NCBI GenBank assembly: GCA_050014495.1
Contig: JBEKDF010000058.1
Location: forward strand, 1-11,824
Reading direction: 5' to 3'
DNA length: 11,824 nt
DNA from: Candidatus Bathyarchaeia archaeon
Lineage (GTDB): Archaea; Thermoproteota; Bathyarchaeia; TCS64
Positions 1-11,824 of the stretch are shown here, piece by piece; within the stretch, counting starts at the first letter, position 1, and the number at the start of each line of letters is the position of its first letter. The notes beneath the pieces were generated by a model. The model was given only the letters and a program-made list of their open reading frames with translations, was not told the DNA's origin and did not search any database. Both the position numbers and the translations under genes were made by a program.

Positions 1-219
1 ATGTTCACTTAGTCTCTTTACCTGTATGTATCTCTGGCTTTGTTGGCTGAAACTCGCCATTCTATGGCGTACCAGTTGATGGCTGCAAGCTCTGCTTATT
101 CCCTCGATGGCATATGTGAAGGAGAGATGGCCAAGAAATTCTGTTTCGGGGATCTCCGACGCGGGGAGTGTGGCAAGAAGTTCCTTGCTCGAGGTGTGTG
201 CCAAGAGTTCTATTTTCAA
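1..219 (-). CDS. thyX: FAD-dependent thymidylate synthase ThyX, 5' part (continues beyond window start)
   Basis: Manual translation from TTG at 219: [73 protein letters not shown]. Contains the ThyX motif RHR-x7-S followed by QRY. Start overlaps the upstream TGA (TTGA). Absent from the ORF track because it has no stop in the window. Confidence 0.93.
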
Positions 220-626
220 TATGTGTGCTTCCCAAATGCATAGACGGACGGAGCCACATTTTTTATTGACTCTAAGAGAAGCTTTGAGAAATCATTTTTT
301 TCTGTTTGACACTCGAGAACGGTTCGAAGATTTGCGCTCATGAGCCACTCATTGGATACTAGTCTTGTAAGAGTGAAAAATTTGTTCGCGAGTAGTATTT
401 TTAGAACCTCACTCTCCCCTGCCTCGAGCAGCCAGTCAAGCCTATTATGTTCCAATATGCTCCCATGTTGCACCTCGAGCCTCCCTACGATCTCCGCTAC
501 CTTCGCTTGCTTAATTGAGAGTCCTTGGAAGAGACTAATAGGTGACGCACCGCTGGTCGTAGTTAGCATCGCAGTCGCGATGAGAGTTTCTATGGCGGGG
601 GTCGATGCAAGGAGCCTGAGTTTCAA
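216..626 (-). CDS. ThyX-like short paralog lacking the RHR-x7-S catalytic motif
   Basis: 136 aa with ThyX-type N-terminus ([10 protein letters not shown]), H-x-S-x-x-EH motif (QHGSILEH) and C-terminal elements ([14 protein letters not shown]). No RHR motif. Translationally coupled to thyX. Confidence 0.75.
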
Positions 627-630
627 AGAG

Positions 631-891
631 TTACACCGGGGGCATACTACTCTTCTTCGGTTTCGCTTTCACTTCGACTGGAATGTCAATCGCTCTTACA
701 ACGTTCATGGAGTTGATGAGGTAAATAGGAGTTCCATCTGGCTCGAATTGGTTTAGCCTTTTAACCCCCCTTACTATTAGTTTGACCTTTAATTTGGTCC
801 CGTCGCTGAGTTGATAGAGGTTCCAATGCTCCTCGATCTCTGTGAAGTCTAAATCAATGCTCTCGTCTAGAGCCTCGGGTGGTATAGCCAT
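631..891 (-). CDS. Small hypothetical protein (likely ATG start at 891; TTG at 903 is an alternative)
   Basis: Fills the thiI/ThyX-like gap co-directionally with 4-40 bp spacers. Globular beta-rich sequence (EEHWNLYQLSDGTKLKVKL...DGTPIY). No function assignable. Confidence 0.8.
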   Translation of the reverse strand: MAIPPEALDESIDLDFTEIEEHWNLYQLSDGTKLKVKLIVRGVKRLNQFEPDGTPIYLINSMNVVRAIDIPVEVKAKPKKSSMPPV

Positions 892-931
892 GATTGTACC
901 CAACCAGATAATAGGCGTCTGTAATTTATCT

Positions 932-2092
932 TTAGCCCGAGGAGAGGCGCTTTATCTTCTTGGCGACCTCAAAGCAGAGGTCAACCAATTCTAGTTTCGC
1001 TTCTAACTCTTCTATTTTCATTATTCTGCTTGTAGTGGCTGGGGTAGAGGGTACAACTTTACAGCCTTCTACCTTGCGTGCAGTTAATGAGTATGTACCT
1101 ATGATTCTTGCCCTATCTTCTATTTCGACCTTATCTAGCCCGATCAAGGGGCGTAGTACGGGTATATTGACCGCTGAGTCGAGGACATATAGGTTGTCAA
1201 GGGTCTGGCTCGCTACCTGCCCCATGCTTTCACCTGTCACAATGGCCTTAGCTCTTTTGAATTTGCAGAACTCCTCAGCTATTCGATACATCGATCGTTT
1301 ACAGAGGACACAAGTGAATCTGGGTTCGGGTGACTTGAGTATCATCTCCATTACAGGGCCCATAGGAGCGGAGTAGAGAGTAAAGCCCTCAGATGGAGCG
1401 TACTTTGAGATTGCTGCAAATGCTTCCTCGGCTCGTTTGATGTAGCTCTCACCCACATATGGTGTCTGATCCATGAAAAGGGGGAGGGTCTCAACGCCTC
1501 GTTTCATTATCAACCATGTTGCGACTGGGCTGTCGATGCCACCGCTAAAGAGGGCTATGGCTCGTCCCTGAGAGGCATATGGTAGACCACCCACACCATC
1601 AATCTTGTTTGTGTATGCATAAGCCTCCTTATCCCTCACCTCTATACCAACTGTGACATCAGGAGTGGTCAGGTTCACTTTGACCCCTTTTGTTTTGTTA
1701 GCCTCATTTATAGCTGCCCCTGCTTTCACTGCGATGTCATGGCTACGGTATGACTGATCACCAACAACTTTTGGCCTGACTGCGAAGGTCGAGTTGAGCT
1801 TCAACGTTGTGCTTGCTACCCTTACAGCCAACTCGAGCACGTCACTGATGTCAGAACTTGAATCCTCAGCGGGAATTGCATGGACGACCCCAAATACGTT
1901 AGCCACAACTTTGGCTGCCTCAGCGGGTGCACCCTTGATTATTATTCTGCCGAACTGTCTCTTAGCTCTGGCCTCGCTATAGCCATTTCTTCTCAGGACA
2001 TACTCAATTTGGGCCACTAGCCTACGTTCGAGAGCTGCGCGAACATATCTACTCTTTAGCGCTATCTCATTGTAGGCGACAAGGATCGGCAT
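932..2092 (-). CDS. thiI: tRNA 4-thiouridine synthase ThiI/TtuI (THUMP + PP-loop, Fe-S-type, no rhodanese domain)
   Basis: N-terminal YNEIALKS, THUMP domain, GVGGLP, PP-loop SGGIDS, CxxC (CVLC), TGESMGQVASQTLDNL, RPLIGLDK and a distal Cys (EGC). Confidence 0.96.
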   Translation of the reverse strand: MPILVAYNEIALKSRYVRAALERRLVAQIEYVLRRNGYSEARAKRQFGRIIIKGAPAEAAKVVANVFGVVHAIPAEDSSSDISDVLELAVRVASTTLKLNSTFAVRPKVVGDQSYRSHDIAVKAGAAINEANKTKGVKVNLTTPDVTVGIEVRDKEAYAYTNKIDGVGGLPYASQGRAIALFSGGIDSPVATWLIMKRGVETLPLFMDQTPYVGESYIKRAEEAFAAISKYAPSEGFTLYSAPMGPVMEMILKSPEPRFTCVLCKRSMYRIAEEFCKFKRAKAIVTGESMGQVASQTLDNLYVLDSAVNIPVLRPLIGLDKVEIEDRARIIGTYSLTARKVEGCKVVPSTPATTSRIMKIEELEAKLELVDLCFEVAKKIKRLSSG

Positions 2093-2775: not shown

Positions 2776-2820
2776 TCAACTAAGCAACTCCATAACATGC
2801 GTGCACATATAAGTAATTAT

Positions 2821-3633
2821 TGTTTTGTGGAGTATCAGTAAAACTTATAGATCAAACAGGGCACATTTCTAACCAATGGACTGGAAAGAGACCGATCAAA
2901 GGCTCATCCGGCGAGGAGAACTAATACTAGAAACACAATCACTGAAAAACCACGGAAAAGAACTCAAAAAGATGAACGAAGGCAGACCAGGACCCAGATA
3001 CAAACTCGCCAACAGCTACGTAGAGCTCCTAGCAGCAGTAAGATACCTCTACCAAATGCCCCACCGCCAACTCGAAGGCTTCACCAGAACACTCCACACA
3101 CTCGTCCCAGACCTACCACAGGCGACTACTCAGGACTCAGGAAACGCATCCTCCGACTCAACACAGACCCCTACGGGAGCCTCAGGGAATCCACCGAACC
3201 CGTCACAATCGCCGTCGACTCCAACGGAGTCAAGGTCCACAAGGCCGGGGGATGGGTGGAGCGGGTGCACGGGAAGAAGAGCCGCTACGTGAAGCTTCAC
3301 TTCGCCGTCCGCATCGACACCCATGAGGTGGTGGCGATGGAGGTCAGCACAGACGACACCCGCGCGCGCATGCGTCGGGCGGTGGAGCTGGTTAAGCGTC
3401 TCGGCTACGATGGGTGGGCTAGGCTCTCTGGTTATGGGCGGCGGTGGGCCGTGGAGACGGCTTATTCGACGTTCAAGCGGGTTTTCGGTGAGGGGTGTAT
3501 GGCGAAGACGCTGGGGAACATCGCGAGGGAGCTGGTTGGTAAGGTGGCGTTGGATAATGTGTTGATTAATGGGTGAGTGGGCTGTGGGTTTGTTGATCGG
3601 TGTTCTAACCGCTACTTGATAGTCCACGAAGCA
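2821..3633 (+). mobile_element. Defective IS5-family insertion sequence (ISH1-like group), 813 bp
   Basis: TIRs TGTTTTGTGGAGTATCA (2821-2837) and TGATAGTCCACGAAGCA (3617-3633) match at 14/17. 8-bp target duplication GTAATTAT at 2813-2820 and 3634-3641. Internal transposase remnant. Confidence 0.92.
2876..3576 (+). pseudogene. IS5-family DDE transposase pseudogene
   Basis: N-terminus MDWKETDQRLIRRGEL...RQLEGF. Frameshift at ~3119-3121, after which the frame reads GDYSGLRKRI...IAVDSNGVK...YVKLHFAV. The second-Asp (DGAYD-type) region is missing at ~3360. C-terminal GYGRRWAVETAYSTFKR is the Y-x2-R-x3-E-x6-K signature. Confidence 0.9.
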
Positions 3634-3640
3634 GTAATTA

Positions 3641-3700
3641 TTATAAATATTGTATATATTTATAAGTCACTGTTATAACAAAAATAGGTAGGTCGGTAGT
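3641..3700 (+). promoter_or_regulatory. Promoter/leader of the short Zn-ribbon-NuoE(N) gene
   Basis: Perfect inverted repeat TTATAAATAT-N5-ATATTTATAA (3641-3665) containing TTTATAA; palindrome TGTTATAACA (3671-3680); AGGTAGGTCGGTAGT (3686-3700) directly before the ATG. Confidence 0.6.
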
Positions 3701-4090
3701 ATGAGGCTAGAATGTGGTCACTGTAGCTACACTTGGGATTACAAAGGTAACCATAACTTTTGGGCTACTTGCCCTCAGTGCCGATACAAAGTTAGGATTA
3801 TCCAAAAACCAATGATAAAATCAGAGGAAAACTGGGAACCCAACGTTGAGGAAACCAATGATAAACGTGTGGTAGATGTAGTTTGGAAACTGCTACAAAA
3901 ATACAGCAACGATAAAAAATCCATCACGCAAATCTTAGCAGAGATCCAGGAAACTTACGGTTGGCTTCCACAGGAGATGATATTGGAGGTCAGCAAGCAG
4001 CTAGAGGTACCCTATGGACAGGTCTATCAGATTGCCATATTTTTGAGGGGGGAAAATAGATCAGAGGCACTGAAATCTAGTGTAAATTAG
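3701..4090 (+). CDS. Zn-ribbon (CxxC...CPxC) fused to the N-terminal helical domain of NuoE/HydC; no [2Fe-2S] domain
   Basis: CGHCSYTWDYKG...ATCPQCRYKV, a linker, then ILAEIQETYGWLPQE...LEVPYGQVYQIAIF. Paralog of 5407..6030, ending where the thioredoxin-like domain would begin. Confidence 0.85.
   Translation: MRLECGHCSYTWDYKGNHNFWATCPQCRYKVRIIQKPMIKSEENWEPNVEETNDKRVVDVVWKLLQKYSNDKKSITQILAEIQETYGWLPQEMILEVSKQLEVPYGQVYQIAIFLRGENRSEALKSSVN
3955..4030 (+). repeat. 76-bp direct repeat, copy 1 (copy 2 at 5667-5742)
   Basis: 74/76 identical; differences are 4003A/5715G and 4007G/5719A. Confidence 0.97.
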
Positions 4091-4287
4091 AAATATATTG
4101 GAGGAACGCGTGAGAAGCACGAGACTGCGGATACCTTTTAGCTTATAATGAGCAGAGTTTTAAGTATGCGCGCGCGCGTGGTAGAAAGTGAAACACTTCT
4201 GAATTGAAAAATTGTTATGGGGTGAGATCCCGCGCCATAATTTTGAGCACGCACTTACATGACCAAAAATTGTTCCTAATGAAATTT

Positions 4288-5310
4288 TTATTCTATAGTT
4301 CTTTTGTAGGCTCTGTCTATAGTTATCTCAGCGATGTCTGATACGTATTGACTTATACGTTTGATGTTCTCTTTGATGAAACTAAAATCGCTCAACGAAG
4401 TGCTTTTGTATCCGTCCACTATGGGCATCTTAATTAAATCATTGCAGAGATTATTGACAATCACTTCACGGTCAATTATCTCATTTGTAGAATCAATATT
4501 AGATGATAAAAAAGATCGGACAGCGAGATCATATGAAGCGAGAGTCATCTCTGCTGCCTTAATTAGGTTCTCCGACACGTTTATAGTTAGTTTTTCCTCA
4601 ACAGGGGTTAATCTCGCTATGATTTTCGCAATTGCGGATATATGGTCCGCTATCCTTTCGATGCTCTGAACAAGGTTCTGATAATCTAGACAGTCGAGTG
4701 GATCTAGTCTCAAGTGATTACCTAAAGAAAGATTCTGCGCACAGCTCCTGATTAGCCTCAGTAAAAAGAACATAAGTTGATCAACGTCATTCTCCAAGGG
4801 TAAGACGGATTCAGCAAGGACTTTATCTCCTACTATAAGAGCATTAATAGTGTCTCTAAACATAGAGTATGTAATGAGGTGAATTCTTTCTACACTGGAT
4901 GAAATTGAGGCCCTATCTTCATCAATTAAAGTCTCGAGTGTTATGCTGTTCGCATCAGATTTGATTATCATCATATAAAGGATATTCGATATTTGTCGAA
5001 TAGCTGCCTGCTGGTTGATGGTGAAGATTTTTTCGGATATGAGATTAATTAAGGTGTGTCCATCCATGTAAGCTCCGATTATTTTTCGCGTAATTGAAGC
5101 ATCTTTTTCATTTGTACTGATCGTTAGGGAAATGCTTCTCACATCATTCGTCATGTTTTTTGTGGGGTAAACGAAGAGTGTTCCATTGGACAAGGGTTGT
5201 AAGGAGAGCCAATCTCCTTGAGAAATATTGTTGCTTCTCAGCCAGTCCTTTGGTAAGGATACTACGAGCGATGACTGACCAAGAGCTACAATTTTACGCT
5301 GCTCCATCAT
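4288..5310 (-). CDS. phoU: Archaeal AbrB/SpoVT-PhoU family regulator
   Basis: N-terminal AbrB-like RKIVALGQSSLVVSLPKDW...ISQGD; middle RKIIGAYMDG; PhoU repeats (LENDVDQL, IERIADH, IKRISQYVSDIAE). Confidence 0.92.
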   Translation of the reverse strand: MMEQRKIVALGQSSLVVSLPKDWLRSNNISQGDWLSLQPLSNGTLFVYPTKNMTNDVRSISLTISTNEKDASITRKIIGAYMDGHTLINLISEKIFTINQQAAIRQISNILYMMIIKSDANSITLETLIDEDRASISSSVERIHLITYSMFRDTINALIVGDKVLAESVLPLENDVDQLMFFLLRLIRSCAQNLSLGNHLRLDPLDCLDYQNLVQSIERIADHISAIAKIIARLTPVEEKLTINVSENLIKAAEMTLASYDLAVRSFLSSNIDSTNEIIDREVIVNNLCNDLIKMPIVDGYKSTSLSDFSFIKENIKRISQYVSDIAEITIDRAYKRTIE

Positions 5311-5406
5311 GGTTGTATATGTACATATATATTCATTATAATGGTATTTCTGAAAAGTATATATTTTAATTTCGTAATGACTTAAAATCAGGAGGTAGGT
5401 AGGTAG
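5311..5406. promoter_or_regulatory. Divergent phoU / hydC-like promoter region with AT-rich palindromes
   Basis: Palindromes TATATGTACATATA (5316-5329) and CATTATAATG (5334-5343); BRE/TATA-like GAAAAGTATATATTT (5352-5366); GGAGGTAGGTAGGTAG before the TTG. Confidence 0.6.
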
Positions 5407-6030
5407 TTGTTACTTGAGTGTCAACACTGTGGATACATGTGGGACTATAGCGGAGAAAACAGGTTCTACGCAACTTGCCCCCAATGTAGATACAAAGTAA
5501 AGTTATCTGAAGAGGTTAGCGCGACCCCCAGATCCATTAATTCGACACCTCCGAGTGGAGGACAGAATAATCTTAAAGGGGTTGGAAAGATCGTAAGGAG
5601 AATCCTTAGCAAGTATGGGTTTGAGAAGAGATCCCTGATTCAAATCCTGCTCAATATTCAACATGATTACGGTTGGCTTCCACAGGAGATGATATTGGAG
5701 GTCAGCAAGCAGCTGGAGATACCCTATGGACAGGTCTATCAGGTAGCGACTTTCTACAAAGCATTCTCGACCTCGCCCAGGGGAAGACACCACATCAGAG
5801 TATGTAATGGTACAAGCTGCAATGTCCGAGGTTCACAGGCTGTAATTGAGGGACTGGAGAGGAGACTCGGGATAGGTGCCCTAGAGACAACTGTTGATGG
5901 AAGATTTAGCCTCGAGACCGTGAACTGCGTGGGATGCTGTGCGATGGGGCCTATGGTAGCCATAGATGGGGAATACTTCGGTAAAATGGATGTTAAGGGC
6001 CTGGATACTGTCCTGGAGAAGTTTAAGTGA
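5407..6030 (+). CDS. nuoE: HydC/NuoE-like [2Fe-2S] subunit with an extra N-terminal Zn ribbon
   Basis: CQHC...CPQC N-terminal ribbon; helical domain (GWLPQE...VYQVATFY); CNGTSC...CVGCC [2Fe-2S] motif. Confidence 0.93.
   Translation: MLLECQHCGYMWDYSGENRFYATCPQCRYKVKLSEEVSATPRSINSTPPSGGQNNLKGVGKIVRRILSKYGFEKRSLIQILLNIQHDYGWLPQEMILEVSKQLEIPYGQVYQVATFYKAFSTSPRGRHHIRVCNGTSCNVRGSQAVIEGLERRLGIGALETTVDGRFSLETVNCVGCCAMGPMVAIDGEYFGKMDVKGLDTVLEKFK
5667..5742 (+). repeat. 76-bp direct repeat, copy 2
   Basis: 74/76 identity to 3955-4030. Confidence 0.97.
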
Positions 6031-6040
6031 GGAATAGTTT

Positions 6041-7936
6041 ATGATGTCACGTGAAATAACGGGGCCGAATATGCTTGAAGAGCTTAGGAAGGAGATCCAA
6101 GAGGAATCTGTTTCTCAAAAGGTGACTATCTCGGTTTGCTCCAGTACGGGGTGCGTGGCTCTTGGGTCGCAGAGCCTCTTGAAGATGCTGAAAGAACAAC
6201 TCTCAAATCAGGGTCTAGAGGAAATTGTCGAGATCAAGGAAACCGGGTGCCTCGGCTTCTGCGAGAAAGGACCCAGGCTCACCGTTTATCCAGGAGGCAT
6301 CAGCTACTTCCAGGTTTCTCCTGAAGATATCGACGAGATTGTTACAAGGTCTTTGGAGCATGGTCAACCTCTCGAAAGGCTTCTCCTAAGAGACCCTGAG
6401 ACTGGCAAAACCGCTGAGCGATTAGAAGACATACCATTCTACAAATACCAGCGTAGGTTGCTGCTGAGCGATAATGAGAGAGTTGATCCGAAAAAAATCG
6501 AGGACTACATTTCGATTGGTGGATACTCTGCCCTGAGCAGGGTTCTATTCCATATGAAGCCAGAGCAGGTGATCCAAGAGGTCAAGAAGTCTGGTCTACG
6601 GGGTCGTGGCGGTAGCGGCTTCCCGACGGGGCGTAAGTGGGAGGCAACCAGGGATGCCCCTGGAGACCCTAAATATGTAATAGTAAACTGCGACGAAGGG
6701 GATCCCGGGTCCTTCATGGATAGATCCCTCATGGAGGGAAACCCCCACAAGGTACTAGAGGGCATGATGATAGGAGCGTACGCTATAGGTGCCTCGAAGG
6801 GGTACATATATATTAGAGAGGAGTATCCCATCGCATTCGCCAATGTGAAAACAGCCATAGCCCAGGCTAAGGAGTATGGTCTGATTGGTAGTAACGTTAT
6901 GGGGTCGGGTTTTAGCTTCGATGTAAAGGTCCACTCAGGTGCAGGAGCCTTCGTTTCTGGGGAGTCAAGCGCACTTGTTGAGGCGATTGAGGGTAGAGTC
7001 GGCGAACCGAGGCCCAAGTACATACACATATCCGAGAGGGGCATCGACGGGAAGCCAACTTGCCTGAATAACGTGAAGACATGGGCGAATGTCCCGATTA
7101 TTATTTTAAACAGCGCCGAGTGGTACAAGAGTGTTGGTACGGAGAGTAGCAGTGGCACCAACATCTTCTCCCTCGTGGGTAATGTGAATAACACCGGCCT
7201 TGTAGAGGTTCCAATGGGAATCACCCTCAGAGACATGGTCTACAAGATAGGTGGAGGCGTGCGAGGTGGTAAGCGGTTTAAAGCCGTGCAAATTGGAGGA
7301 CCCTCTGGCGGATTCATCCCGGAGCAGTTCCTAGATCTCAAGGTAGACTTCGACTCCCTATCAGAGGCAGGTTCAATGATGGGCTCAGGAGGGATGGTGG
7401 TCATGAATGAGGATGCCTGCATGGTGGACGCTGCAAAGTACTTCGTGGACTTCCTACTCGAGGAGTCCTGTGGAAAATGCATACCATGTCGCGAGGGGCT
7501 AAAGGTGCTTTCAGCCACACTCGGCAGAATATGTGAGGGAATGGGAAAACATTCCGACCTCGAGATAATTAGAGACGTGACTGAGGCAATGGAGACAACG
7601 AGTCTCTGCTCACTAGGTAAAACCGCGATCAACCCGGTATTAACTTCAATGAATTACTTCAAAGACGAATGGGAAGCACATATTGAGGAGAAAGTCTGCC
7701 CAGCTAAGCATTGTAGAGCCCTCATCGAGTACTCCATAGACGAGAAAAGTTGCAAGGCTTGTCTCCAATGTACAATGAACTGCTCCACAGCAGCTATTAG
7801 CGGGGAGAAGAGGAAACCACAAAGAATTGACCAGAGTAAATGCATAAAGTGTGGAACATGTTACGACCTCTGCCCAAGCAACGCTGTTGTGAAGATATCT
7901 AGAGGCGCGGCCAAGCAGATAGGATTGGTGGATTAA
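6041..7936 (+). CDS. nuoF: HydB/NuoF-like FMN- and NAD(P)H-binding flavoprotein (long, bifurcating-type architecture)
   Basis: N-terminal thioredoxin-like Fe-S (CSSTGC, GCLGFC); GLRGRGGSGFPTG; NCDEGDPGSFMDR; SLBB GGPSGG; CGKCIPCREG...CSLG; C...H-x5-C-x4-C site; two C-terminal CxxCxxCxxxC motifs. Confidence 0.95.
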   Translation: MMSREITGPNMLEELRKEIQEESVSQKVTISVCSSTGCVALGSQSLLKMLKEQLSNQGLEEIVEIKETGCLGFCEKGPRLTVYPGGISYFQVSPEDIDEIVTRSLEHGQPLERLLLRDPETGKTAERLEDIPFYKYQRRLLLSDNERVDPKKIEDYISIGGYSALSRVLFHMKPEQVIQEVKKSGLRGRGGSGFPTGRKWEATRDAPGDPKYVIVNCDEGDPGSFMDRSLMEGNPHKVLEGMMIGAYAIGASKGYIYIREEYPIAFANVKTAIAQAKEYGLIGSNVMGSGFSFDVKVHSGAGAFVSGESSALVEAIEGRVGEPRPKYIHISERGIDGKPTCLNNVKTWANVPIIILNSAEWYKSVGTESSSGTNIFSLVGNVNNTGLVEVPMGITLRDMVYKIGGGVRGGKRFKAVQIGGPSGGFIPEQFLDLKVDFDSLSEAGSMMGSGGMVVMNEDACMVDAAKYFVDFLLEESCGKCIPCREGLKVLSATLGRICEGMGKHSDLEIIRDVTEAMETTSLCSLGKTAINPVLTSMNYFKDEWEAHIEEKVCPAKHCRALIEYSIDEKSCKACLQCTMNCSTAAISGEKRKPQRIDQSKCIKCGTCYDLCPSNAVVKISRGAAKQIGLVD

Positions 7937-7937
7937 A

Positions 7938-8555
7938 TTGAAGACGATAGAGTTTGAGATAGACGAGAAGAAAGTGAGAGCCAGGGAAGGCATGACAATA
8001 CTTGAGGCTGCAAAGCAATCAGGTGTCAATATTCCTACACTCTGCTACCATGAGAATCTGGATCACCTCGGTTGCTGCAGAATCTGCTCGGTGTATATTG
8101 AGAAAGGGAAAAGGGGGAGTATAGTCACAGCCTGTAGCTACCCCGTTGAAGAAGGACTTAAGGTGACGACTCGTTCACAAAAGATCGATAGGTTAAGGAA
8201 GACAATAATCGAACTAGCAATCGTTGGTTCCGGCCCTAATATAAAGGCTGACCTCTATAGACTTTCTAAGGAATATAATGCAGATCTTAATCGTTTCAGC
8301 TCAATCGGGGAAGAGACCAAATATAACTGCATACTCTGTGGACTATGCACCATAAAATGCATCGAGGCTACAGGTGGAGCAATTGGCTTTGTAGGCCGGG
8401 GGGTTGACAAGAAGATAGTCTCGTTCCCCGAGACGTCGCAGACATGTATAACCTGTAACTACTGTAACAATGTGTGCCCGACTGGGAGAATATCGTTAAA
8501 GGGGGCCGACCCGCCCTTTCCAACAGTCAACGACTTTCTCTCAGGAAGAAGCTAG
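7938..8555 (+). CDS. Short HydA/NuoG/HoxU-like Fe-S subunit ([2Fe-2S] + 2x[4Fe-4S]) without a catalytic domain
   Basis: IPTLC...GCCRIC...TAC; CILCGLCTIKC; CITCNYCNNVCP. Only 205 aa, with no H-cluster or molybdopterin domain. Confidence 0.92.
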   Translation: MKTIEFEIDEKKVRAREGMTILEAAKQSGVNIPTLCYHENLDHLGCCRICSVYIEKGKRGSIVTACSYPVEEGLKVTTRSQKIDRLRKTIIELAIVGSGPNIKADLYRLSKEYNADLNRFSSIGEETKYNCILCGLCTIKCIEATGGAIGFVGRGVDKKIVSFPETSQTCITCNYCNNVCPTGRISLKGADPPFPTVNDFLSGRS

Positions 8556-8565: not shown

Positions 8566-8686
8566 CATGCAATTTACATGAGCACACGCGGCCCGAGTTA
8601 TCTCCAAAACAATTGTAACTCTTCTATGCGCGCAAATGCACACATCGTGGAGAAGCTATTTATCCCTATGGCTTGTATTGTTGTTC

Positions 8687-8744
8687 AGCCAATGATGTGA
8701 AGGCATTAGAGCGATTCGTGAGCGATCAGAGTTACACTGAGGCT
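8687..8744 (+). ncRNA. Box C/D sRNA (2'-O-methylation guide), predicted dual 23S rRNA targets
   Basis: Terminal stem AGCC/GGCT; box C ATGATGT (8692-8698); guide 8699-8710; D' GCGA (8711-8714); C' GTGAGCG (8718-8724); guide 8725-8736; box D CTGA (8737-8740). TATA-like TTTATCC at 8659-8665. Guides are complementary to GUAACUCUGA and CUAAUGCCUU, which resemble 23S H69 and H70/71 sequences. Confidence 0.88.
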
Positions 8745-8961
8745 AAACCGTAAATAACATTCAAATAGTTATTTAGCGACGCGCGCAAGCAGATAATTCT
8801 GAGTAATTCCCAACGTAAGTGAAGATACATCTATAATTCCCATACGCGAAAACTCCGTAAAATAAGAGGGTCCAGTCAATAAACGTAAATATTAAATCAA
8901 ACAACCGCGTATTTTGAGCAGTTTTAATTACTAAAATCTAAAATGGAAGGTAGATGAAGGA

Positions 8962-9933
8962 GTGATTCAGCGTAGGAGTGCCCTGACTCAGGTTCAGGCG
9001 ATCGTGATCATAATCATAGTGGTCGTCGCAGGCGTCGGAGCATACCTCCTCGGACTAATACCTGGCACGGTCTCCATACCTAGTCATGGATCATCCACGA
9101 TCCAGACTCACAGCACAACACCTCTGCCATCTTCACTATCGCTTGGAACGACGAAGACTCAGAGTTTCACGTGGGGGGGCTATAACAGAACCTACAGCAT
9201 ACACATATCACAGATCTACGATTCAAGCAAGCCGACGCCGCTGGTAATCATGCTTCATGGATTTACGGAGGACATGCTCCTCACGCAGAGCTATTTCCCA
9301 ACGGATAAATCGGATGAGGAAGGCTTCATCGTCGTTTACCCCCAGGGAATAGGACTCGGCTGGAATGTGGCGTTCGGATTCGGGGAGGCCTACAAGAATA
9401 ACATGGATGATGTGGGCTTCATACGTGAGCTCATCTACAGAACCGAACAGATTTACAGGATCGATCCAGACAGAATCTACGTTGCGGGATTCTCCGCTGG
9501 CGCGATGATGGCGTACCGTCTAGGCGCTGAGCTCTCCGATAAGATAGCTGCTATCGCCCCGGTCGCGGGTTCGATTGGGGGACACATGAATGAAACCATT
9601 GCTCCTATTCGAATAATCGACAACCCCTCACAGCCCGTATCCGTCATCGTTTTAATGGGAACGGGTGATCCGAATTACTACGGTGCAAACGCGAGCGTCT
9701 TCGGTTTTTCGTCTCTGTCAGTTCATGATTCTGTTACCTTCTGGGTGGATCATGATGGGTGTAGTAAGACCGCTCAAAACACCACCGGGAATCCAGTTAA
9801 AAGTGTCTACTCCAACGGCTTGAAGGGCACTGAGGTCGTCTTATACACGTTTATTGGTGGGGATCACGAGTGGCCAAGCAATGCTGCTGATGTTATCTGG
9901 GACTTCTTTAAGAGCCACCCCAAGCGGCACTAA
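8962..9933 (+). CDS. Membrane-anchored/secreted alpha/beta-hydrolase, PHB depolymerase (LpqC)-like esterase
   Basis: Hydrophobic N-terminal helix, S/T/P linker, PLVIMLHG, FIVVYPQG, DDVGFI, IDPDRIYVAGFSAGA nucleophile elbow, GTGD, GGDHEWP. Confidence 0.9.
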   Translation: MIQRRSALTQVQAIVIIIIVVVAGVGAYLLGLIPGTVSIPSHGSSTIQTHSTTPLPSSLSLGTTKTQSFTWGGYNRTYSIHISQIYDSSKPTPLVIMLHGFTEDMLLTQSYFPTDKSDEEGFIVVYPQGIGLGWNVAFGFGEAYKNNMDDVGFIRELIYRTEQIYRIDPDRIYVAGFSAGAMMAYRLGAELSDKIAAIAPVAGSIGGHMNETIAPIRIIDNPSQPVSVIVLMGTGDPNYYGANASVFGFSSLSVHDSVTFWVDHDGCSKTAQNTTGNPVKSVYSNGLKGTEVVLYTFIGGDHEWPSNAADVIWDFFKSHPKRH

Positions 9934-9989
9934 TGCTCGCGCGACGTACAGGAGAGCTGCGAAATTATCTTCCACCGCGCGCGCATTAG
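9930..9989. repeat. Inverted repeat between convergent genes
   Basis: CTAATGCTCGCGCG (9930-9943) and CGCGCGCGCATTAG (9976-9989) are 13/14 complementary with a 32-nt spacer. Confidence 0.7.
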
Positions 9990-10013
9990 CAAAAGTGAGT
10001 TTATGCGTGCATG

Positions 10014-10421
10014 TTAAACAACCAATATGGCTAGTACAATGATTTCAGCTAGAAGGATTGCTCCGCATAGGATAGATATGAAAGGTCTTTCCTGCTTGCT
10101 TGGATTTACATCGTCAACTAGTTCCATACGTCTTTTAGTCGGTACTACCAATATGCTTCTACTACGAACAATTGTTGAATTATTTTCATCATTATTGTTC
10201 CATCTCAAACGTGGGTTATTGGAATATGCACCAATAAATCCATAGAGGAAGAGGAGCCCTGACTCTAAAAAAGTGATGTCGCCAATAATTCCTGTAATAT
10301 TGTTTATCTCGATTCTCCCGAAATAAGCATTAGATAGAATTAAACTGAGGACAATATTTATTATGCCAATGCCTAAGGCTAAACGAATTGATTTTATTAT
10401 TATACTCCGATTAATAGACAA
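10014..10421 (-). CDS. Hypothetical membrane protein (about 3 TM helices)
   Basis: Hydrophobic segments (LALGIGIINIVLSLIL; ITFLESGLLFLYGFIG; FISILCGAILLAEIIVLAILVV); AT-rich; TTG start. Confidence 0.7.
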   Translation of the reverse strand: MSINRSIIIKSIRLALGIGIINIVLSLILSNAYFGRIEINNITGIIGDITFLESGLLFLYGFIGAYSNNPRLRWNNNDENNSTIVRSRSILVVPTKRRMELVDDVNPSKQERPFISILCGAILLAEIIVLAILVV

Positions 10422-10586
10422 GTGTTACTGAATTGTGCAACGCTCTATTTAGGAGGTTCGCTGTGTGTGCATAACTTAAATTTCATAAACACATAAGGCC
10501 AAGGTGCAAAACTAAACGCGCGCGCATGGCATAATCGATCTACAGACCGTTGATGTTTTAATATGCACATGGCTCAGTGAATTGGA

Positions 10587-10616
10587 GCTGACAACAGTCA
10601 GCGACTCTGTGAGGAG
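10587..10616 (+). promoter_or_regulatory. Short inverted repeat and Shine-Dalgarno upstream of the amidohydrolase
   Basis: GCTGAC-AACA-GTCAGC (10587-10602); GAGGAG (10611-10616); TATA-like TTTTAATAT at 10556-10564. Confidence 0.45.
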
Positions 10617-10622
10617 AAACGA

Positions 10623-11606
10623 ATGAAGGTCATCGACGTCCATAATCACTTGAACCCGCGCCCATTCCTAGAGGCAGTTCGAACCGGTCATGATTGGTAC
10701 GGGTTCACCGCCGAGCACGGCGAGCTTGAGAACCCCCGGAACCACTGGACGCTGAAAGAGCGGATCGCCGACATGAACCGGCTTGGAGTGGATATGCAGG
10801 CACTCACCCTCTATGGCGACTTCAACAAATACGACCGTGACCCAAAGCTCACTAAGGCAGCTGTCAGGGCCTGCAACGACGAGGTAGCGGCCATGGTCGA
10901 TGAGTACCCAGATCGGTTCGTGGGCCTGGGCATTCTTCCCATGCAGGACGTAGCGGCATCGGTAGTTGAGCTCGAGCGGGCGGTAACCGATCTCGGGCTA
11001 AAAGGCGTCACCATCAAGGACCATATCAACGGATACACCCTAGACGATCCGCAGTTCCTCCCCTTCTGGGAGGCCGTCGAGCGGCTGGGAGCCGTCGTCG
11101 AGTTCCACCAGGGCAGCACGATCGTGGCGCAGCGGATCCCTCGTTACTTCCTCGAGAACACCGTGGGCAACCTGGTGGAGCGAGTCCTCACCTTTGGTGC
11201 TCTGGTGCAGGGTGGGATCATCGATCGCTTCCCCAAGCTGAAGGTCTGTCTGCTTCACGGGGGCGGCTATGTGGCTTTCGGGGTCGCCCGAATGGACAAG
11301 GGCTGGGAGGCAGCGAAGCTGGACTACATGGTCAAGTACTCGGCTGAGGAATCCCGCCAGTCGATCTCCAAGCCTCCGAGCCAGTACGTTGGGAATTTCT
11401 ATTACGACTGTGCCACCTTCAGCGAACCGACTCTCCGATTCCTGATAGACACTGTGGGGATCGATAGGGTCGTATTCGGGACAGACTACCCCTGCCCTAT
11501 GGAGATGGTGGACTCGGTTAACTGGATCAACAGTCTGGGGAGCCTGACCTGCTCGGAGAAGCAGGCGATTTTGTCGGTGAACCCGGCCCGGATGTTCGGT
11601 ATCTGA
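10623..11606 (+). CDS. Amidohydrolase_2 family, ACMSD-like metal-dependent decarboxylase/hydratase
   Basis: IDVHNH, NDEVA...PDRFVGLG.LPMQD, ELERAV, PFWEA, FHQG, LHGGG, YYDC, FGTDYP, NPARMF. Confidence 0.93.
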   Translation: MKVIDVHNHLNPRPFLEAVRTGHDWYGFTAEHGELENPRNHWTLKERIADMNRLGVDMQALTLYGDFNKYDRDPKLTKAAVRACNDEVAAMVDEYPDRFVGLGILPMQDVAASVVELERAVTDLGLKGVTIKDHINGYTLDDPQFLPFWEAVERLGAVVEFHQGSTIVAQRIPRYFLENTVGNLVERVLTFGALVQGGIIDRFPKLKVCLLHGGGYVAFGVARMDKGWEAAKLDYMVKYSAEESRQSISKPPSQYVGNFYYDCATFSEPTLRFLIDTVGIDRVVFGTDYPCPMEMVDSVNWINSLGSLTCSEKQAILSVNPARMFGI

Positions 11607-11712
11607 CCCTTCAACTAACTCACCGGGGTCATAGTCTTATCCACACACACCCAAACCCACAACTGGTAGGTTTCAGTATGCGCAACAATCTATGCATTAA
11701 TACGCGCGCGCT

Positions 11713-11824
11713 GGCTTGTCCCTAAAATGGTTAAAAATGGTCATAATCCCCCTCACCGAATTTGGGGGCAATCCCGGGCATATCCCAAACCCCTCACCTT
11801 CTCGTAGAACCCATCCCCTTCAAC
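11713..11824 (-). mobile_element. Possible right end of another IS element extending beyond the window
   Basis: TIR-like GGCTTGTCCCTAAAATGG followed by strongly C/A-skewed DNA, i.e. G/T-rich on the minus strand like the right half of the IS at 2821-3633. A minus-strand frame ends ...GLGYARDCPQIR*. The partner end is not visible. Confidence 0.3.

Follow-up and report, generated by a model that had tools for sequence, protein, structure and literature searches.

What does a 58-base intergenic stretch of a Bathyarchaeia contig encode, and why do its last bases recur in relatives apart from the rest of it? The window considered here, the whole stretch of 11,824 nucleotides that was analyzed, had been read from its letters alone as carrying, at 8687–8744, a C/D small RNA (sRNA) with two guides for 23S rRNA, directed to the sites that are Am2256 and Am2281 in yeast. 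Taking both halves of the question together, our comparison of genomes makes it likely that this sRNA is predicted correctly to methylate A1913 (E. coli numbering) and, less surely, A1938, and that its 3′ 20 bases are an attachment site for tyrosine integrases.

A C/D sRNA gene conserved across Bathyarchaeia

The gene lies between a NuoG-like open reading frame (ORF) ending at 8555 and an esterase ORF starting at 8962, and the boxes, terminal stem and TATA-like element claimed for it by the sequence-only reading were all found in place on the plus strand. AGCC (8687–8690) and GGCT (8741–8744) pair as the terminal stem, stem I of the k-turn. Enclosed by it are box C (ATGATGT, 8692–8698; the final base deviates from the consensus RUGAUGA), the D′ guide (8699–8710), a non-consensus box D′ (GCGA, 8711–8714), a loop reading TTC, a non-consensus box C′ (GTGAGCG, 8718–8724) whose G8722 and C8723 can pair with C8712 and G8711, the D guide (8725–8736) and box D (CTGA, 8737–8740). 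This is the order of an archaeal C/D sRNA, C, D′, C′ and D within about 50–70 nt. A TATA-like box (TATTTAT, 8657–8663), 30 nt upstream of the gene, follows the BRE-like purine run GAGAAGC, the two forming a predicted promoter at 8650–8663; scans for sigma-70 promoters and terminators, which do not cover archaeal promoters, returned nothing. The host genome (3.1 Mb in 92 contigs, with one full 16S and 23S on contig C45) has genes for fibrillarin, Nop5 and the L7Ae family, the last as two PF01248 matches in which L7Ae and L30e are not separable.

The search of relatives that the sequence-only reading had called for revealed a gene conserved across Bathyarchaeia with compensatory changes in its stems. 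The D guide and box D are exact in 15 of 17 genomes within the genus and in 24 of 61 relatives, and when two mismatches are allowed they turn up in 62 of 71 family genomes, in part by chance. A GTDB-wide pattern scan produced 118 matches, from which those without a C box (mostly with bacterial titles) were dropped; 52 of 80 titled loci parse as full genes, 50 titled Bathyarchaeia, Bathyarchaeota or Bathycorpusculum and two of Hermodarchaeia type. The strict dual pattern, run over 301 genomes of the phylum, matched only three of them, all inside the class. Because the guide cores formed part of the search patterns, their invariance is no evidence, and the invariance of box C in 23 of 23 aligned close homologs concerns sequences chosen by that same motif. 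The stems, internal boxes, bases −1 and −3 of the D′ guide and the TATA element lay outside the patterns. Among 69 distinct homologs of Bathyarchaeia type, stem pairs 1–4 are paired in 69, 69, 68 and 67, with pair 1 being C-G in 41 and G-C in 28, and pair 3 G-C in 40 and C-G in 28. The D′ register reads TTGA in 36 of these homologs and CTGA in four, and stem II, formed by D′ and C′, covaries as GCGA/TGAGC (17), GAGA/TGATC (3), GTGA/TGAAC (1) and CTGA/TGATG (4). Compensatory changes in both stems are thus predicted to preserve the k-turn and k-loop geometry. In 52 of 68 distinct homologs, a WTWTAH motif begins 33–36 nt ahead of box C, against a background of 2.8%.

Two features would suit a mere chance arrangement of motifs. 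No sRNA or snoRNA family in Rfam (GlsR7, snoPyro_CD, sR1–sR41, SNORD45) reaches its gathering score; the best score for the window is 19.9 bits, to GlsR7 with a cut-off of 75, so the window sRNA is not a GlsR7 member. The folding energy is also unremarkable, no better than that of shuffled sequences (z −0.20), as is expected of a C/D RNA scaffolded by protein. Conservation with covariation refutes this explanation and leaves it a negligible probability, as does the rarity of the arrangement. Counting both strands and leaving out the rRNA contig C45, the genome offers 6,167,114 positions. A 10-mer antisense to 16S or 23S occupies the D slot at 27,706 of them; in 80 of these the D′ slot is filled as well, by an 8-mer, with the two targets no more than 100 nt apart, and a single one of the 80 is then followed by CTGA, namely the window locus. 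Each guide 10-mer taken alone has 8–10 exact complements in the genome, about the chance level. The comparative pattern leaves us in virtually no doubt that 8687–8744 is a real C/D sRNA gene.

Two variants deserve mention. The locus L003 (G060:C11:8349–8363) has the same D guide with a different D′ guide, a guide swap. A homolog with canonical boxes, L155, shows a likeness to SNORD45 of 26.3 against a cut-off of 45.

Guides with predicted targets in helix 69 and at helix 70/71

To number the targets, the host 23S was aligned to E. coli rrlB and the N+5 rule applied. The two bases selected are A2018 and A2043 of the host 23S, which correspond to A1913 and A1938 and lie 25 nt apart. The assignment of the D guide to A1913, in the loop of helix 69, was borne out: 8726–8735 pair 10/10 with 23S positions 1910–1919, T8732 (−5) selects A1913, and the 10-bp duplex satisfies the rule of at least nine contiguous Watson-Crick pairs including N+5. 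Elsewhere this guide finds 5 bp at best in 16S and 6 bp at best in tRNAs. In several genera an A replaces C at its position −2, which leaves 9 bp for the duplex with helix 69 (G018, G020–G022, G025–G027, G031, G033, G035, G463, G502, G811 and G812, plus L247).

For the D′ guide, the proposed target A1938 stood, selected by T8706 (−5), but the perfect 10-mer complement to the host 23S did not. Bases 8700–8707 and 8709 pair with 1944–1937 and 1935, giving 8 bp, an A·A mismatch and one last pair, G-C. The host target reads CCAAATGCCTT, so guide base A8708 faces A1936. The sequence-only reading had placed a U at 1936; the host has A there, a base shared by 65 of 65 class matches, which were collected from 64 of 251 class genomes with position 1936 left free in the search pattern. 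Eight contiguous pairs fall below the nine-contiguous rule. They pass the relaxed rule that PMC6009581 gives for second guides that pair less well (a target within 100 nt and one mismatch), with a score, computed by hand, of 36 against a threshold of 32. Other targets considered for the D′ guide, in 16S (7 bp) and among 50 ARAGORN tRNA calls (7 bp), are both weaker than the 23S match.

On the strength of these pairings, we predict that the sRNA very probably directs 2′-O-methylation of A1913, and that it probably directs methylation of A1938, less surely than that of A1913. The sRNA would be transcribed from its own TATA promoter. L7Ae would bind the C/D k-turn and the C′/D′ k-loop, in which the G-C/C-G stem II would stand in for the consensus, and fibrillarin would then methylate the base paired to guide position −5. 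During assembly of the 50S subunit, the two guides together may clamp the segment that runs from helix 69 to helix 70/71.

Comparison with crenarchaeal, Asgard and eukaryotic guides

Helices 68–71 are described as methylation hot spots in PMC4644070, which predicts guides for A1913 (Ignicoccus hospitalis sR91, Sulfolobus acidocaldarius sR113) and A1938 (S. acidocaldarius sR125, I. hospitalis sR109) on separate sRNAs. Like the window RNA, sR91 and sR113 have the D guide TCAGAGTTAC followed by 1 nt and CTGA, with alignment position A2179, equivalent to E. coli A1913, as the predicted target (PMC4644070, supplement 1; the sR113 entry reads "A21779," which we take as a misprint of A2179). Unlike it, sR91 has a D′ guide for G2211, and no target is predicted for the D′ guide of sR113. 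The guide of sR125 and sR109, AAGGCATTTG, shares the second target of the window RNA, given as A2204 and equal to A1938, but is placed at box D, has no mismatch at A1936 and is accompanied by a partner guide directed to G2172 (PMC4644070). Among the rows of the PMC4644070 supplement that match the guide motifs, no sRNA pairs A1913 with A1938. Pyrobaculum sR40 has a GGCAUU D′ guide on the same rRNA stretch and non-consensus D′/C′ boxes, as in the window, but its register gives G2206, equal to G1940, and its D guide goes to U2222 (PMC6009581; PMC4644070). In Pyrobaculum, the two targets of an sRNA lie no more than 100 nt apart in about 45% of cases (PMC6009581). The special status that had been given to one sRNA serving both sites was therefore overrated, since nearby dual targets are ordinary and each site had been predicted before in crenarchaea.

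Counterparts with the same slot order, the helix 70/71 guide at D′ and the A1913 guide at D, occur in two groups of Asgard archaea. Three genomes of one Asgard class (G510–G512, two of them titled Hermodarchaeota or Hermod) share this layout, with a D′ guide for A1938 that is perfect over 10 bp. The D guide of this type, TCATAGTTAC, fits the 23S loop GTAACTATGA, taken from G585, the sole 23S found in 19 genomes of the class; that of G510–G512 themselves is not assembled. The second type, in 19 genomes, has a D guide ending in G, matching C at 1910 of their 23S (TCATAGTTAG with CTAACTATGA in the six genomes holding both guide and 23S); by hand count, D selects A1913 and the D′ register selects G1940, as in Pyrobaculum sR40. 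In both types the guide thus tracks changes in the rRNA. The relaxed pattern picked out 24 of 301 Asgard genomes against two reversed-pattern controls, and 22 are credible after removal of G777 and G708, which have no internal boxes. With the strict pattern, three real genes were accompanied by two matches judged to be chance, L198 inside an apparent coding frame and L202 without boxes. A model built from Bathyarchaeia scores the Hermodarchaeia-class genes at 18.6–19.9 bits and the other type at 10.5 bits or not at all, scores so weak that common descent is not shown.

The eukaryotic equivalents had been named correctly: yeast Am2256 is guided by snR63 (PMC5699541) and Am2280–2281 by snR13 (PMC4174444), two separate snoRNAs. 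Yeast ψ2258 corresponds to E. coli 1915 (PMC2794176), which makes yeast 2256 equal to 1913 and, in turn, yeast 2281 equal to 1938, provided that no indel intervenes in the yeast rRNA. The targets of snR63/SNORD46/GlsR7 (Am2256) and snR13/SNORD15 (Am2281) are thus equivalent to those of the window sRNA. Where the eukaryotic guides can be checked, they also share its slots, with the helix 69 site served from D and the second from D′: the guide of GlsR7 is in the D slot, snR13 works from D′ (PMC5389607), and in the Guillardia nucleomorph GtNM-R8 uses D for human A3739 and GtNM-R15 uses D′ for human A3764 (PMC6461891). They differ in being two separate snoRNAs and in that snR13 also marks A2280 through an accessory guide. 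A literature search, in which "C/D" is not searchable as a word, found no relevant report of Bathyarchaeia or Asgard sRNAs. The window RNA, otherwise an ordinary C/D sRNA, combines two sites conserved in eukaryotes, in the slots that eukaryotes use, and this combination is unreported. As a guide RNA alone it is an ordinary new member of a large class; its wider interest is as a traceable candidate for the passage from a dual-guide archaeal sRNA to two single-guide eukaryotic snoRNAs at a key intersubunit bridge.

These comparisons bear on what the D′ arm does and on where the likeness comes from. Only A1913 might be methylated, with the D′ arm acting as a folding anchor on 1937–1944 and methyl transfer there absent or weak. 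The 8-bp D′ duplex would fit such a role, with an A·A mismatch that sits at −3, two bases away from the target (67 of 69 homologs have A there; the unpaired −1 base is free), as would the non-consensus C′/D′ boxes, the different D′ guide of L003 and the move of the D′ target to G1940 in 19 Asgard genomes and in Pyrobaculum sR40; sR33 of Pyrobaculum offers a case of conserved guide pairing without methylation (PMC6009581). Yet the −5 pair of the D′ guide is Watson-Crick, C′/D′ covaries, and the register GGCATT plus 3 nt plus D′ is fixed across Bathyarchaeia, where four rows of genus g12 permit a second parse. The D′ guides of the three Hermodarchaeia-class genomes pair 10/10 in the same register, and A1938 is methylated in yeast and predicted to be in two crenarchaea. 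We consider a role confined to A1913 rather unlikely and prefer methylation of both bases.

As for origin, we give an even chance to convergence of the window RNA, the Asgard RNAs, SNORD46/snR63 and SNORD15/snR13 on two favored sites. The letters they have in common are limited to boxes and target-dictated guides, both sites are hot spots (PMC4644070), and the crenarchaeal A1938 guide sits in the D slot of other sRNAs (sR125, sR109). The low bit scores of the Asgard genes, their presence in 22 of 301 genomes only and gene neighborhoods that differ from those in Bathyarchaeia point the same way. Against convergence stand the identical slot order in Bathyarchaeia and both Asgard groups and the occupation of those same slots by eukaryotic single guides (GtNM-R8, GtNM-R15, snR13, GlsR7). 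Shared ancestry with the eukaryotic snoRNA pair is a tentative proposal that we hold somewhat doubtful.

The 3′ end of the gene as a probable attachment site

Several relatives hold copies of the last ~20 bp of the sRNA gene without the remaining gene. This reuse of the 3′ end had, like the Asgard counterparts, escaped the sequence-only reading. The corresponding stretch of the window, a predicted attB at 8726–8745 on the plus strand, consists of the dyad core TCAG-AGTTACA-CTGA (8726–8740) plus GGCTA. Genome G012 has the full gene and four copies, at +951, +2301, +3458 and +3900, which bound small genes within 3.9 kb; the resulting cassettes measure 0.4–1.4 kb and have zero to three small ORFs each, in both directions. 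A single copy is present at +1251 in G016 and at +1800 in L136 (the arrays of G012 and G016 reappear in L101 and L151 and are counted once). Within up to 8 kb of flank, 3 of 52 loci have an extra copy, which means that most loci are empty or that their inserts are longer or decayed. A search allowing four mismatches gave six real matches, with 0–3 mismatches, and controls of 0 (downstream, other strand), 1 and 2 (upstream) and 3 (reversed).

Occupied and empty sites can be matched. On the metagenome contig L226, foreign DNA replaces the 5′ part of the sRNA gene, and the sequence beginning at the repeat is 96.6% identical over 997 bp, in exact register, to DNA behind the intact gene of G004. 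The second copy in L227 is followed with 86.5% identity over 801 bp, in 1:1 register, by the DNA behind the full gene of L149; the second copy in G012 matches G017, but with an offset. Judged by these alignments, each of the three pairs shows one site both occupied and empty. G012 (four copies), G016, L136 and L227 carry the direct repeat of the 3′ end beyond inserted DNA. Of ten metagenome matches, five that looked unrelated (L224, L228, L230–L232) and two that repeat the C16 and C47 junctions of G000 were dropped, as were eight in-frame matches among 20 fetched regions (L235, L241, L242, L245, L246, L248, L250, L252).

The junctions are uniform. In 19 of 20 the copy begins at the T of TCAG; box C is never included, the sRNA's strand is kept, and the copy matches the local gene variant (GGCC in L227, L229, L233 and L237; TTTGAGG in L243). 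The core, TCAG-N7-CTGA, forms a dyad around 7 bp, and because a 4-bp dyad alone is common (73 in the genome), it is weak evidence by itself. An arm motif, WTACWC, lies 19–20 nt upstream in 13 of 20 junctions against a background of 0.19%; six of the positives belong to the discovery set and four were selected by the motif, with three of six among the remaining junctions. Three such junctions on other contigs of G000 (C16:8593+, C47:16428−, C30:19643−), with the right half decayed or a different overlap, are read as candidate secondary sites. Clusters of small related ORFs of about 180 aa, membrane-anchored and sharing a "TLETRQAQL"-like stretch, are found upstream of the att-like junctions on C16 and C47 of G000 and also on its contig C40, and mark variable regions. 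In the window there is no recognizable second (attR) copy; 10483–10501 was tried, and its likeness is faint, too weak to accept.

Our account of these observations is that the 3′ end of the sRNA gene probably serves as a tyrosine-integrase attB, and we are confident, short of certainty, of insertion with 3′-end duplication at the gene. An incoming circle would carry an attP made of the arm (RTTACWC), 19–20 nt, TCAG-N7-CTGA and a copy of the gene's end. Recombination within the 7-bp overlap would restore the sRNA at attL and leave an orphan 3′ copy at attR, and repeated use followed by decay would produce arrays of small cargo cassettes, as at tRNA genes. The tRNA-gene attB sites of archaeal tyrosine integrases are alike in that the 3′ part of a stable-RNA gene is duplicated on integration, in the 7-bp overlap between short inverted repeats and in tandem reuse of one site (PMC8371274; PMC6563490). 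They differ from the site proposed here, at which the target would be a C/D sRNA gene, with the guide itself as the overlap and box D as one of the half-sites. An integron attI/attC array was rejected: integron cassettes are co-oriented, end in attC (RYYYAAC...GTTRRRY) and have intI adjacent, whereas these junctions are without attC ends, the cassette genes run both ways and no integrase adjoins the G012 array. Transposon ends were likewise considered and rejected.

The copies could also have arisen without a site-specific recombinase, through short-homology duplication or MITE-like spread into an unstable region. Both flanks are indeed plastic, with 5.9 kb including IS remnants between hsp20 and the window sRNA and other inserts in relatives; the G012 cassettes are without an integrase; and MITE-like elements of Pyrobaculum calidifontis similarly repeat sRNA sequence in unstable genome regions (PMC6009581). 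Those elements, however, keep the C and D boxes and terminal inverted repeats, in contrast to the last ~20 bp alone copied here. The near-constant starting base, the consistent exclusion of box C, the kept strand, the replacement of the gene's 5′ part in register with empty sites and the arm motif shared at a fixed distance all speak against this origin, which we hold improbable; integration at the sRNA gene is the reading that we carry forward.

PMC8371274, a review of archaeal tyrosine recombinases, and PMC6563490, a survey of Thaumarchaeota, give integration targets as tRNA, protein-coding and intergenic and describe tandem reuse; "snoRNA" and "sRNA" are absent from their main texts. In a study of provirus borders, PMC13626063, ncRNA makes up 13.5% of RNA targets, and C/D RNAs are not named in the main text. 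Our literature search, largely without subscription papers, found no report of a C/D sRNA as an attachment site. C/D sRNA genes would join the likely targets of archaeal integrases. They are mostly unannotated, so some of the archaeal att sites classed as "intergenic" (15 of 68 in PMC6563490) may in fact be genes for sRNAs, and programs that look for islands at tRNAs would overlook those located here. More speculatively, the two halves of our account might be joined in one history, which we think unlikely as a whole: a dual-guide RNA of a Bathyarchaeia–Asgard ancestor, split in eukaryotes into SNORD46/snR63 (box D) and SNORD15/snR13 (box D′) lines, would in one Bathyarchaeia family have become a tRNA-like att site where integrases, using box D and its guide as the core, stack small cassettes and larger defence islands.

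Candidate integrases

Among the junctions examined, only two have an integrase gene beside an att end. In G818, a 409-aa PF00589-like ORF (26.6 bits, E 6e-06, below the Pfam cut-off of 27.1) starts, on contig C15, about 20 bp behind the full gene and is followed by an AbiEii-domain gene. The orphan copy of G818, on contig C8 and not on that of the full gene, precedes the purM-like core gene that usually closes the locus. The full gene ends in GGCTT and the orphan in the genus-typical GGCCA, a difference to be expected had the new end come with the element. Contig C9 of G016 encodes a tyrosine integrase of 330 aa whose gene stops 1.5 kb short of an orphan copy matching G016's own gene variant. 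Neither family is tied to the repeat elsewhere: none of seven homologs of the G818 integrase (31–50% identical) has the gene or repeat (up to 3 mismatches) within about 1.5 kb, and the G000 ortholog of the G016 integrase (91.5% identical) has no repeat in the 12 kb scanned. The only PF00589 match of G012 is on another contig, with none beside its array, and none was detected in G011. Viral collections and contigs held no att copy and no homolog of the integrases. A tyrosine integrase acting partly in trans is nonetheless, on this pattern of genes, the likeliest agent, a somewhat favored proposal and one much less sure than the insertion itself.

A CRISPR array of about 51 repeats with a duplicated spacer block (L233:1–4600, G818:C8) lies 300–400 bp before the G818 orphan copy, which suggests a defence island integrated at the sRNA. 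In L155, a 423-aa integrase-like ORF (1–1270, minus strand) stands head to head with hsp20, upstream of the sRNA and in the usual place of thiI.

Variable DNA around the window locus

Upstream of the sRNA, the window has an anchor conserved in relatives, two small ORFs, thiI and hsp20 (216–2775). The two small ORFs and hsp20 precede the sRNA in 9 of 9 regions of relatives with a full gene and thiI in 7 of 9, and the sRNA gene usually comes after hsp20. Between hsp20 and the sRNA, about 5.8 kb of the window (2776–8555) was not found in the regions of 12 relatives. It holds a broken DDE transposase (2876–3576), a short NuoE-like duplicate (3701–4090, 52% to 5407–6030), a PhoU/MazE regulator and a NuoE/F/G-like three-gene module.

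Behind the sRNA, 8746–10543 is likewise not found in the regions of the 12 relatives; this variable stretch, in which no second repeat is recognizable, contains the esterase (8962–9933, plus strand) and a 135-aa ORF (10014–10421, minus strand). It is followed by an amidohydrolase gene (10623–11606, plus strand; 10544–11606 with its leader). The amidohydrolase is directly behind the sRNA in G017 and between two repeat copies in G012 (90.5% identical protein); in the window 1.8 kb separates it from the sRNA, which it adjoins in G017. At 11703–11824 the contig ends in a multi-copy repeat, 100% identical to the ends of C13, 98% to C29 and with partial matches on about 30 contigs; it is probably the end of an IS or MITE at which the assembly broke. 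GCGCGC-type palindromes occur in AT-rich spacers near junctions, in the window at 8628–8634, 8779–8786, 10518–10526 and 11703–11711 and also in L017, L020, L024, L030 and L237. Finally, GTAACTCTTC at 8615–8624, 60 nt upstream of the sRNA gene, matches the reverse complement of the D guide/arm motif at 8 of 10 positions, a likeness that may be due to chance.
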